A stretch of DNA of 33,440 bases from Tidjanibacter sp. Its GTDB lineage: Bacteria > Bacteroidota > Bacteroidia > Bacteroidales > Rikenellaceae. A program made the translations under genes and the position numbers. The notes under the pieces are model-generated. The model had not been told where the DNA came from and did not search any database. It saw only the letters and a program-made list of their open reading frames with translations. The stretch's first letter is position 1. Each line of letters begins with the position of its first letter. Shown here one piece after another: positions 5,457 to 7,483 of this stretch. Where the stretch lies: the NCBI GenBank assembly GCA_017630115.1, contig JAGBVY010000104.1, positions 1 to 33,440 of the forward strand, written 5' to 3'.

Positions 5457-5691
5457 CGTGAGCTAATGCGAATTTAGCGCAATGTAAATTATTGATTCTC
5501 TGCAACCGCTGTTGTGCGCAAATCGCAATACTCACATTAAGGGCTTTTGCAAAGCCCCTTTAATACTTACATTCCTCCCTAAATCCCTCCTTTGGGAAAG
5601 GTGGGACTTGGTCAAAGAGCCTCAGTAAGGCTCTTTGATAAGCGGAAGTTTCGGAATTTCAACTTGTTGAAATTTGCGAAACTCACGTTAA
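5453..5691. mobile_element. Putative MITE-like non-autonomous element (239 bp)
   Basis: Perfect terminal inverted repeat TTAACGTGAG (5453-5462) / CTCACGTTAA (5682-5691) with an imperfect extension; four internal hairpins; no ORF. Confidence 0.55.
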
Positions 5692-5783: not shown

Positions 5784-6737
5784 ATGAATCACGATGTTTT
5801 CATAAGCTATTCGAGCAAACGCTCGGAAGTGGCCAATGAGATATGCGACCTATTGGAGCGTAGTGGCTTGAAGTGTTGGATAGCCCCTCGTGATATTGTG
5901 GGCAACAACTACGACGACCTCATAGACGAGGCTATTGTTGGTTGCAAGTTGTTTGTCTTTGTGTTCTCGCAGGAGTCTTCCGTATCGACGTGGTGCAAGG
6001 CCGAACTAAACCTTGCTTTTTCGGAGAACAAGGCGATTTTGCCCTATCGCATAGACAATACGCCCCTGAGAGGTGGTTTTAGGTTGAAATTGCAAATGAG
6101 TCATTGGCTTGATGCCAGTTTGGACTATCGCTCGGAGTTTCCCAAACTTATCCAGATGGCAACCCAGATAGTTGGTGTCCCCACACCACAGCCAGCTCCC
6201 AAACCTCAGCCAAAGCCTCAGCCCAAGCCACAACCTACGGCTAAGACCTATAAGGTGGGCGACTACTACGACGACGGCACTAAGAGGGGTGTTGTCTTTG
6301 AGGTAACGTCCGACGGAAAGCACGGCAAGATTGTAAGCCTCGAACAAGCCGAAAAGCAATGGGCAATAGGGGCAGTTTGTGGTGATAAGACATACGCAAC
6401 CTCAATGACGGATGGCAAGGCTAATATGCAAAAGATAATGGCAATTAGAGGTTGGAGAGAAAAGTATCCTGCTTTTGCTTGGTGTGCCGATTTGGGCGAG
6501 GGATGGTATCTGCCCATACAAGAAGAGTTAAAGACCATAGGCAAAGCACGAGATCAAATCGACGCAACGCTCTCCGCCAATGGCTGCACGAAACTAAAAC
6601 GTTTTGATGATTATTGGTCTTCCTCTGAGAAAAGCACTCATGACTTTTGCGCGTGGTATGTCCGTATGTACAGTGGCAACACCTACTACGACTATAAGTA
6701 CAACCGCGGCTATGTGCGCGCCGTGTCCGCTTTTTAA
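5784..6737 (+). CDS. TIR-domain protein with a (PKPQ)n linker and a C-terminal DUF1566/Lcl_C-like (CLec-fold) domain; candidate DGR target
   Basis: N-terminus DVFISYSS..CWIAPRDI..STWCKAEL (TIR_2-like, putative catalytic Glu); C-terminus YKVGDYY..GWYLP..EEL..YWSSSE..AWYV..YVRAV; no signal peptide. Confidence 0.88.
   Translation: MNHDVFISYSSKRSEVANEICDLLERSGLKCWIAPRDIVGNNYDDLIDEAIVGCKLFVFVFSQESSVSTWCKAELNLAFSENKAILPYRIDNTPLRGGFRLKLQMSHWLDASLDYRSEFPKLIQMATQIVGVPTPQPAPKPQPKPQPKPQPTAKTYKVGDYYDDGTKRGVVFEVTSDGKHGKIVSLEQAEKQWAIGAVCGDKTYATSMTDGKANMQKIMAIRGWREKYPAFAWCADLGEGWYLPIQEELKTIGKARDQIDATLSANGCTKLKRFDDYWSSSEKSTHDFCAWYVRMYSGNTYYDYKYNRGYVRAVSAF
6186..6236 (+). repeat. Coding 12-bp repeat giving the Pro/Gln/Lys linker (PQPAPKPQPKPQPKPQP)
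   Basis: cccaaacctcag ccaaagcctcag cccaagccacaa, degenerate at third codon positions. Confidence 0.75.
6600..6737 (+). other. Putative DGR variable repeat (VR) with a GC-rich 3' end
   Basis: Dense NNC/NNT codons (TAC TAC GAC TAT AAG TAC AAC CGC GGC TAT) between A-free constant codons; only 1 of the last 45 sense codons ends in A; template repeat not seen. Confidence 0.6.
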
Positions 6738-6769
6738 GATTTAGGCTTGGAGCGCAAGCGAATTTTTAT

Positions 6770-6808
6770 GTCAAAGCCCCGCAACGATTGCGGGGCTTTG
6801 GCGTTTTT
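6770..6808 (+). terminator. Perfect 13-bp hairpin after the TIR gene (terminator and/or DGR target-recognition hairpin)
   Basis: CAAAGCCCCGCAA-CGA-TTGCGGGGCTTTG (6772-6800) followed by GCGTTTTT. Confidence 0.7.
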
Positions 6809-6918
6809 AAGGGTTTTAAGGGCCTTAGGGGCTCTAAGGAGTTTAAGGCCTATAAGGCTTATAGGGCTTATAGGGCTTATACCTAAGCTCCCTAAATTCT
6901 CTAAATTCCCTAAGCTCT
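6808..6918. repeat. Head-to-head 9-bp tandem arrays: (TARGGnnnn)x8 then (CTAAnyTcy)x4
   Basis: taagggttt taagggcct taggggctc taaggagtt taaggccta taaggctta tagggctta tagggctta / ctaagctcc ctaaattct ctaaattcc ctaagctct. Confidence 0.85.
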
Positions 6919-6919
6919 C

Positions 6920-7483
6920 TTATTCCTCAATTTCCAATTCTCCATTCTCACTTTTCAACCCTTCCTCGGTCGGCTCCTCGGCAGGTGGAGTGGGTGGGGT
7001 GGTGAAGGTGGAGGCGGGGATCTCGGTGGTGACAATAAATGCCTTGGGGAAGTGAATCCTCACCTTCGAAAGCAACATTATGGCCTCCTCCTGAGTAAGG
7101 CAGTCGCCACAAGTGACCAAAAAATAGGGATTCTCGTAGCTGAGGTAGTGGCTGATGTTGTAGTGCTCATTGAGCAGTGCAATGGCGGCCTCGGCATCGG
7201 TGCGGGCTGTTTGGTTGTGGCTGGCAAAGATGCGAATGCGGTAGCCCTGATAGCTCTCGCGGGGCGAGGTCTGCTCGTTGAATTTGTCTATGGCCATCTG
7301 GGCGCTGTGGTTGATGACGGTCTTGCACTGAGCGCTATCGGTCTTGGAGGTGTGGGCCTCGAAGAGTTGGGTTAGGTTGCCAAAAAGTTCACGCCCCCTC
7401 TCCACCAAACCGTTCTCCTGAGCTTGGAGCGAGAGGCCACCCCAAAGGAGGGTGCAAATAAGTATGAAAAGGTCTTTTCTCAC
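6920..7483 (-). CDS. Exported SPOR-domain-like protein
   Basis: Signal peptide (LQA-Q); GYRIRIF..AR..AE..YLSYENPYFLVTCGDCLTQEEA..AFIV resembles Bacteroidota SPOR proteins. Confidence 0.7.
   Translation of the reverse strand: MRKDLFILICTLLWGGLSLQAQENGLVERGRELFGNLTQLFEAHTSKTDSAQCKTVINHSAQMAIDKFNEQTSPRESYQGYRIRIFASHNQTARTDAEAAIALLNEHYNISHYLSYENPYFLVTCGDCLTQEEAIMLLSKVRIHFPKAFIVTTEIPASTFTTPPTPPAEEPTEEGLKSENGELEIEE

Follow-up and report, generated by a model that had tools for sequence, protein, structure and literature searches.

Introduction

Targets in which a TIR or kinase domain is fused to a C-type-lectin-fold (CLec) domain, and their diversification in trans, have been described for cellular DGRs (PMC10907252, PMC7517822), and the TIR + CLec design is thus already published. 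In clade 5, exemplified by Thiohalocapsa PB-PSB1, a CLec variable region (VR) is joined to a TIR, kinase or protease domain, the targets occur in cytoplasmic and transmembrane forms, remote loci are diversified in trans, and a role as immune sensors has been proposed; these DGRs are cellular and belong to multicellular hosts with STAND/MoxR systems (PMC10907252). Cyanobacterial DGRs are likewise chromosomal, and dispersed Ser/Thr kinase or TIR paralogues with a common VR are found in the same genome as the DGR (PMC7517822). For phage DGRs, remote targets were not expected, with one possible exception, and the DGRs with remote targets were all non-phage but one (Wu 2018, PMC5758913), and the survey method of PMC8144416, by its own account, misses remote targets. 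The main text of the Bacteroides DGR preprint 10.1101/2024.11.15.621889 contains none of the words "remote," "in trans," "Alistipes," and "TIR," while its supplements may bear on the question; in the literature outside subscription papers, we found no report of a phage DGR rewriting host genes. Here, we describe a host TIR-lectin fusion, the last 30 codons of which match the template (TR) of a Mu-like Rikenellaceae prophage and have likely been rewritten in trans when such a prophage was resident.

Results

The window, i.e., the whole analyzed stretch of 33,440 nucleotides, belongs to a genome of Tidjanibacter sp. (G000; assembly completeness 85.84%), and sites are labeled below by genome (Gnnn), contig (Cn), locus (Lnnn), and protein (Pnnnn). 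In the protein encoded by the query gene (Table 1), the Pfam matches above the cut-off were TIR_2 (aa 5-112, E 1.3e-20) and Lcl_C (aa 230-314, E 3.1e-10), and neither a signal peptide nor a TM segment was found in its 317 residues. The AlphaFold2 model (113-sequence alignment, mean pLDDT 91.9) is composed of two domains and a disordered linker; its top Foldseek match was the C-terminal domain of Legionella Lcl (E 2e-7), followed by SARM1 and other TIRs. The TIR domain and the CLec/DUF1566-like C-terminus claimed in a preliminary description of this DNA are hence borne out by both profile and structure, and the glutamate of its WCxxE motif (WCKAE) is Glu74, which lines up with that of metazoan TIR-STING 6wt6. 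The feature had been drawn from 5784 to 6808; the start stands, but the ORF stops at 6737, and the end takes in a downstream hairpin. Also, the poverty in A-ending codons was reproduced, with 1/45 at the end of the gene against 14/45 just before and 57/272 in the first 272 (last 45 vs first 272, binomial p 3e-4).

Table 1. Features of the query gene and its downstream region (positions in the window)
Feature	Position	Strand	Basis
TIR-linker-Lcl_C (CLec) gene, 317 aa	5784..6737	+	ORF; Pfam; AlphaFold2
TIR domain, aa 1-130	5784..6173	+	Pfam TIR_2; Foldseek SARM1/AbTir TIR
Conserved Glu74 codon in TIR domain	6003-6005	+	Glu in 28/28 TIR targets
Disordered Pro/Lys/Gln-rich linker	6183..6239	+	pLDDT < 50 at aa 134-149
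Lcl_C / DUF1566 C-type-lectin-fold domain	6243..6734	+	Pfam Lcl_C; Foldseek 8q4e E 2e-7
VR homologous to Mu-like prophage TR; 13 template AAC/AAT codons	6642..6734	+	14/31 A vs 1/35 non-A differences
GC-rich VR 3' end, IMH-like	6714..6734	+	VR ends GCT TTT, TR ends GAA TTT
Non-coding TTAGGCTT motif 3' of stop; candidate cis homing element	6741..6748	+	Conservation
Small hairpin, 5-nt loop	6745-6759	+	Sequence
DNA hairpin, 15 pairs, 3-nt loop; possible terminator and/or homing cruciform	6770..6802	+	Sequence

The neighbors of the query gene are dxs, an unassigned 481-aa gene, SPOR, LEA_2, and FtsX, which is a housekeeping setting. Among 30 loci of the genus, the query gene stands beside the SPOR gene only in G000 and G023, and dxs abuts the SPOR gene in five other loci within the flank available. 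Imperfect repeats (TTTAAGGG and ATAGGGCTT runs, inverted repeats) were noticed at 6805-6920 and 5520-5660 of the window; repeats of this type recur at many intergenic sites of G000 and border several target genes.

As the preliminary description had said of RT, Avd, and template repeat, the window contains no RT or TR that we could find, and no TR was found elsewhere in G000. In this genome (85.84% complete), there was no RVT_1 match by Pfam and no match to two DGR RT proteins, and the comparison with 73 prophage proteins returned only an S24/repressor-like match, beyond which, and beyond the VRs themselves, G000 showed no prophage remnant or spacer-like match. A non-coding copy near a DGR RT, proposed as a check, was thus not found in G000 but was found elsewhere, in Avd-TR-RT cassettes of prophages. 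G000 has four TIR-Lcl_C genes, three of which have a common VR end and flank; the fourth (G000:C96) was rejected as a VR target for its misfit to the template (14/35 non-A differences). As donors, the DGRs of the genus members G007 and G022 and those of G241, G267, and G378 were rejected for their different templates, and those of G011 and G004, which also belong to the genus, for having no BLAST match to the query VR. Three further TIR proteins of G000 have coiled-coil tails and no CLec domain (G000:C96:5231-6265, C122:21877, and C34:361-1347) and are possible partners.

The matching template was found in prophages. Sixteen VRs of the genus were aligned without gaps; in their NNC/NNT codons, the first two bases vary and the third hardly does, and a search pattern derived from this alignment matched one viral contig, six genome records, and one metagenome contig; four of the six genome records are Alistipes or Rikenellaceae, and one record duplicates the contig of the viral match. 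The two of the six that are outside Rikenellaceae, L062 and L064, are left out of the template analysis, and the TR of G071, truncated by the contig start and unlike all others in its 5' part, is excluded from TR comparisons. All copies of the template in Rikenellaceae lie in a target-Avd-TR-RT cassette amid tail and baseplate genes. PHROGs assigned RT, Avd, transposase, transposition protein, terminase, tail sheath, and tape measure to the carrier, which is therefore a Mu-like transposable phage; G243 contains a whole integrated copy of it. The template that had been predicted from the query codons is present letter for letter in the prophage TR G339:C9, and the differences of the query from this TR, counted over 66 nt upstream of the searched motif (6648-6713), are concentrated at template adenines (Table 1), which agrees with the proposal of a remote DGR target. 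A paralogue (G000:C131) fits another TR allele, G074:C26 (16/31 A and 0/35 non-A differences). What the preliminary description did not foresee is a phage-borne DGR absent from G000.

The Mu-like phage has, furthermore, a second CLec gene with a VR, located between its repressor and transposase genes (L071 = G071:C42, L074, L190, L192, and L194); it thus sits in the early operon and is probably non-structural. The RVT_1 match of L038 (G031:C4) resembles a eukaryotic retrotransposon gag-protease fragment and is probably contamination.

At its 3' end, the VR differs from the TR as given in Table 1, and this was seen in 7/7 TRs; judged from the sequence, the GC-rich end may act as an IMH. An exact TTAGGCTT motif follows 77/103 terminal host sites, and the motif or a near match to it follows 10/11 phage targets; its conservation suggests a cis homing element. 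A hairpin or cruciform of DGR targets is described 4-34 bp after the VR with a 4-nt GRNA loop (PMC3240598), whereas neither loop of the query hairpins is GRNA. The remote VR that had been proposed stands, but its YWSSSE codons are upstream of the TR homology, which starts at ~6642 of the window in the phage TRs found. The 14 codons before the VR (6600-6641) are highly divergent among orthologues and paralogues, indels included, which points either to a longer template than those found or to imprecise junctions on the 5' side.

The 21-nt VR end was hit in 51/401 genomes of the family and its reversed control in none. With five matches left out, the site set includes at least 125 sites in at least 54 genomes or contigs, namely, 7 TRs, 11 phage-type targets, and at least 107 host-type sites in at least 47 genomes; other genes ending in the same VR, as anticipated, thus do exist. 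The frame stops immediately after the VR at 103 host-type sites and has it internally at 4, and the phage-type frames read on for 1-7 codons. A genome has up to 13 host-type sites (G231), mostly in housekeeping neighborhoods; a prophage protein was matched at 1/104 host-type loci (repressor-like) vs 10/11 phage-type loci (flanks of 0.3-2 kb), and no host-type end was found in viral contigs. Among 113 proteins, at least 101 have Lcl_C, at least 29 TIR_2, at least 20 Pkinase, and at least 19 PEGA; this set includes phage targets, and many of its proteins lack the 5' end, so that the counts are lower bounds. A wider homologue search gave 1641 proteins at E <= 1e-30.

When all 107 host sites, those out of register among them, were compared with a single fixed TR and the searched motif was left out of the count, 1719/3317 adenines and 634/3745 other bases differed, with Fisher p < 0.01 at 83/107 sites, although these figures are descriptive as kin are not independent. 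At the 81 in-register sites, the third base of template AAC/AAT codons was unchanged in 962/1007 cases, and the template Lys codon was almost invariant (base 1 kept in 81/81). The substitution pattern of the host VRs resembles that of the phage's own VRs, and 26/107 host sites are decayed or out of register. We also noticed PEGA-type proteins with two tandem CLec domains bearing one VR each (L140, L157, and L177), the internal VR having neither stop nor downstream motif, and two orphan VR fragments, i.e., a deletion remnant (L054, G007:C24) and a VR lacking any CLec frame upstream (L045, G015:C12). At its end, the TR of another DGR (L093, G265:C23) resembles the 3' terminus of a host gene (L050, G012:C29), a sequence likeness hinting that other DGR families may write host genes too.

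Evidence on rewriting in trans comes from G243, in which a chromosomal lipoprotein-CLec gene adjoins secDF on a different contig from the prophage. This gene differs from the resident prophage TR at 17/32 A and 0/34 non-A, vs 6-12 non-A differences from five other TRs; by this alignment, it carries the private, divergent template allele of its resident prophage. G071 has the prophage and four chromosomal TIR-Lcl_C genes, with a TR match in the 3' part only. These are the only 2/47 host-target genomes with a matching TR; the cognate TR, RT, and Avd are all in the same genome in G243, partly in G071, and none of them was found in G000. In four prophage-DGR genomes (G072/G240, G073/G339, G074, and G162), no host-type site with the motif was found. 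The sparse overlap fits an episodic supply and also incomplete assemblies.

The query orthologue G023:C31 differs from the query at 5/129 aa in the TIR but at 11/22 aa in the VR, where 17/31 template A vs 3/35 other bases differ, and its VR fits a different TR allele. With nearly equal TIRs, divergent VRs, and different TR alleles, at least one of the query and G023:C31 was therefore overwritten after their split. Variation among relatives is thus biased to template adenines, as predicted, and rewriting was also seen in 8/17 protein clusters (multi-member 90% clusters, a collection without the query); the other nine, among them that of paralogue C50, show little or no change. In 39 in-register pairs (identical members counted each, the A. 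communis cluster and out-of-register pairs dropped), 193/507 template-Asn, 15/624 VR scaffold, and 352/13241 other positions differ. In three clusters, every difference falls within the last 45 residues (0/477, 0/270, and 0/271 elsewhere), with changes at 11/13, 12/13, and 11/13 template-Asn positions, respectively. In two cluster members, the difference is confined to the 3' portion of the VR, as would be expected from polar homing. Also, the TR 3' end occurs within host gene G069:C9 and 8 nt of the TR 5' flank within host gene G026:C1, each a single site.

In three gut runs (X1-X3; contigs only, paralogues mixed), no variant of the query VR was found; X1 had one identical copy, and the 3' half of the query had no listed cover in X2 and X3. 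The small-share runs X4-X20 are not counted as evidence. Alistipes communis, a cultured species, has a frozen copy in the form of a decayed TIR-Lcl target (P0095/P0156 cluster; L110 = G181:C1); 13/15 listed members have the same C-terminus, and the other two are truncated or shifted.

Discussion

Taken together, host receptors are quite probably rewritten in trans by a phage DGR, and the best reading is that rewriting comes in bursts, when a prophage is resident. Phage Avd, RT, and TR RNA would give an adenine-mutagenized cDNA able to home to whichever chromosomal sites share the IMH-like end; upon loss of the phage, the allele would freeze, likely the present state of the query, and selection would keep the fold and the effector.

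The TIR Glu is kept in all TIR targets (Table 1), and the 19 kinase targets, which were recognized by the catalytic loop HxDxKPxN, have that loop; with the catalytic residues and the template Lys codon kept, the proteins are therefore under selection. A membrane segment lies between the effector and CLec in 6/28 TIR and 10/19 kinase proteins, and TIR-TM-CLec(VR) proteins with Toll-like topology are found at L056 (G000:C131), L039, L078, L119, L187, and L145. The query would sense a cytoplasmic ligand. In defense TIRs, NAD+ cleavage depends on assembly, and by this analogy, the most likely mechanism is ligand-driven clustering, in which binding to the CLec tip would cluster the TIR domains and trigger NAD+ cleavage or nucleotide signaling. 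Whether the TIR-lectin gene serves antiphage defense is, by analogy, close to an even bet, leaning slightly against.

Alternatively, and with a smaller though appreciable chance, the phage DGR hits host genes, but the proteins adjust signaling or binding at the surface, or else the hits are collateral and tolerated. Such a role would suit the 53/100 classified host targets that have no TIR or kinase (PEGA, BACON, LRR, protease, and signal peptides), the many frozen or decayed copies such as that of Alistipes communis, and the paralogues of the same scaffold with no VR. Nonetheless, catalytic residues and frames are kept, and so is the non-coding motif across two genera, while the insertion is patchy and lineage-specific (2/30 loci), which is typical of defense genes. 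TIR, kinase, and protease are the effector set diversified by cellular DGRs in proposed conflict systems (PMC10907252, PMC7517822).

As to the source of the mutator, it is improbable that the host genes are rewritten by a DGR of the cell or of an ICE that is missing from the assemblies and that the phage merely has its template in common with it. While all genomes are drafts, from which mobile elements often remain unbinned, and 7/14 aa differ between G000 and G023 in the 14 codons upstream of the VR, which could mean a longer template, every Rikenellaceae template copy found sits among phage genes, four host-target genomes of 98-100% completeness (G231, G003, G069, and G031) have no match to the phage RT, the other DGRs in G007, G241, G267, and G378 have non-matching templates, and the G243 host gene tracks the private allele of its prophage. 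Very improbable, finally, is DNA recombination with phage targets or paralogues that refreshes host VRs with no retrohoming into host genes: the 21-nt end and the downstream motif are common to host and phage targets, and the end was therefore probably first captured from a phage target, but at 26 variable sites the identity is 0.340 for pairs within a genome, 0.341 for pairs from different genomes, and 0.361 for host against phage, where the column frequencies predict 0.350, there is no identical pair among 78 VRs, host VRs match resident phage VRs at 2-12/26 sites (G071 and G243), host genes have their own stop while phage targets read on, and the two host genes G069:C9 and G026:C1 contain TR-only sequence. 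Conversion from paralogues was rejected, and conversion from phage VRs is not supported.

With retrohoming by the phage DGR as the preferred reading, we tentatively propose that Rikenellaceae have a chromosomal repertoire of lectin receptors (TIR, kinase, and protease; some of a Toll-like TIR-TM-ectodomain build) with a phage homing signal, which lysogeny would re-roll and curing would fix, i.e., an infection-switched anticipatory immunity with a borrowed mutator, on the same template as the phage's two variable proteins. A phage DGR with host targets overturns the stated expectation of no remote cellular targets and exposes a gap in DGR surveys that depend on adjacent RT and VR, a limit stated in PMC8144416. 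Also, diversified TIR/kinase receptors are extended from multicellular bacteria to common gut Bacteroidales, and the idea of DGR-based bacterial immunity becomes testable with a two-domain protein, natural allele pairs that differ in the VR alone, such as P0026/P0170 and P0179/P0180, and a prophage as the on/off switch.

Among known systems, Thoeris ThsB, TIR-SAVED, and other defense TIRs have the same TIR fold with the conserved glutamate. PADLOC, however, gave only weak generic TIR/kinase matches (E 4e-8 to 3e-4), no ThsA effector was found among the genes next to the query, and, unlike Thoeris and TIR-SAVED, the sensor of the query is a VR-bearing CLec with no SAVED or cyclase partner nearby. 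With the known phage DGRs, represented by Bordetella BPP-1 Mtd and the Bacteroides hankyphage, the common features are a target-Avd-TR-RT cassette in the tail region, a second target in the same prophage, and a transposable temperate phage of Bacteroidales, but the known targets of such DGRs stay inside the phage. The CLec domain of the cyanobacterial kinase/caspase/TIR-CLec targets, which resemble the present ones in being dispersed paralogues but have a chromosomal DGR in the same genome, is presumably of the FGE type rather than Lcl_C. The DGRs of Treponema denticola TvpA and Legionella LdtA also have multiple remote targets with an Lcl_C/DUF1566-type CLec, but these DGRs are cellular, and the targets are surface lipoproteins (via PMC5758913); the maximum reported is 7 remote targets vs 13 sites in G231. 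The likeness to clade 5 lies in cytoplasmic and transmembrane effector-CLec proteins and in remote loci diversified in trans. The RT is, however, placed among Mu-like phage genes and not in a multicellular host, and no STAND NTPase or MoxR/vWA ternary partner is found among the query neighbors; unlike clade 5, a transposable phage carries the only DGR found to match, a gut Bacteroidales serves as the host, and each target is a two-domain gene standing alone. The query thus works like a clade 5 sensor target but is not a member, since its mutator is viral and transient.
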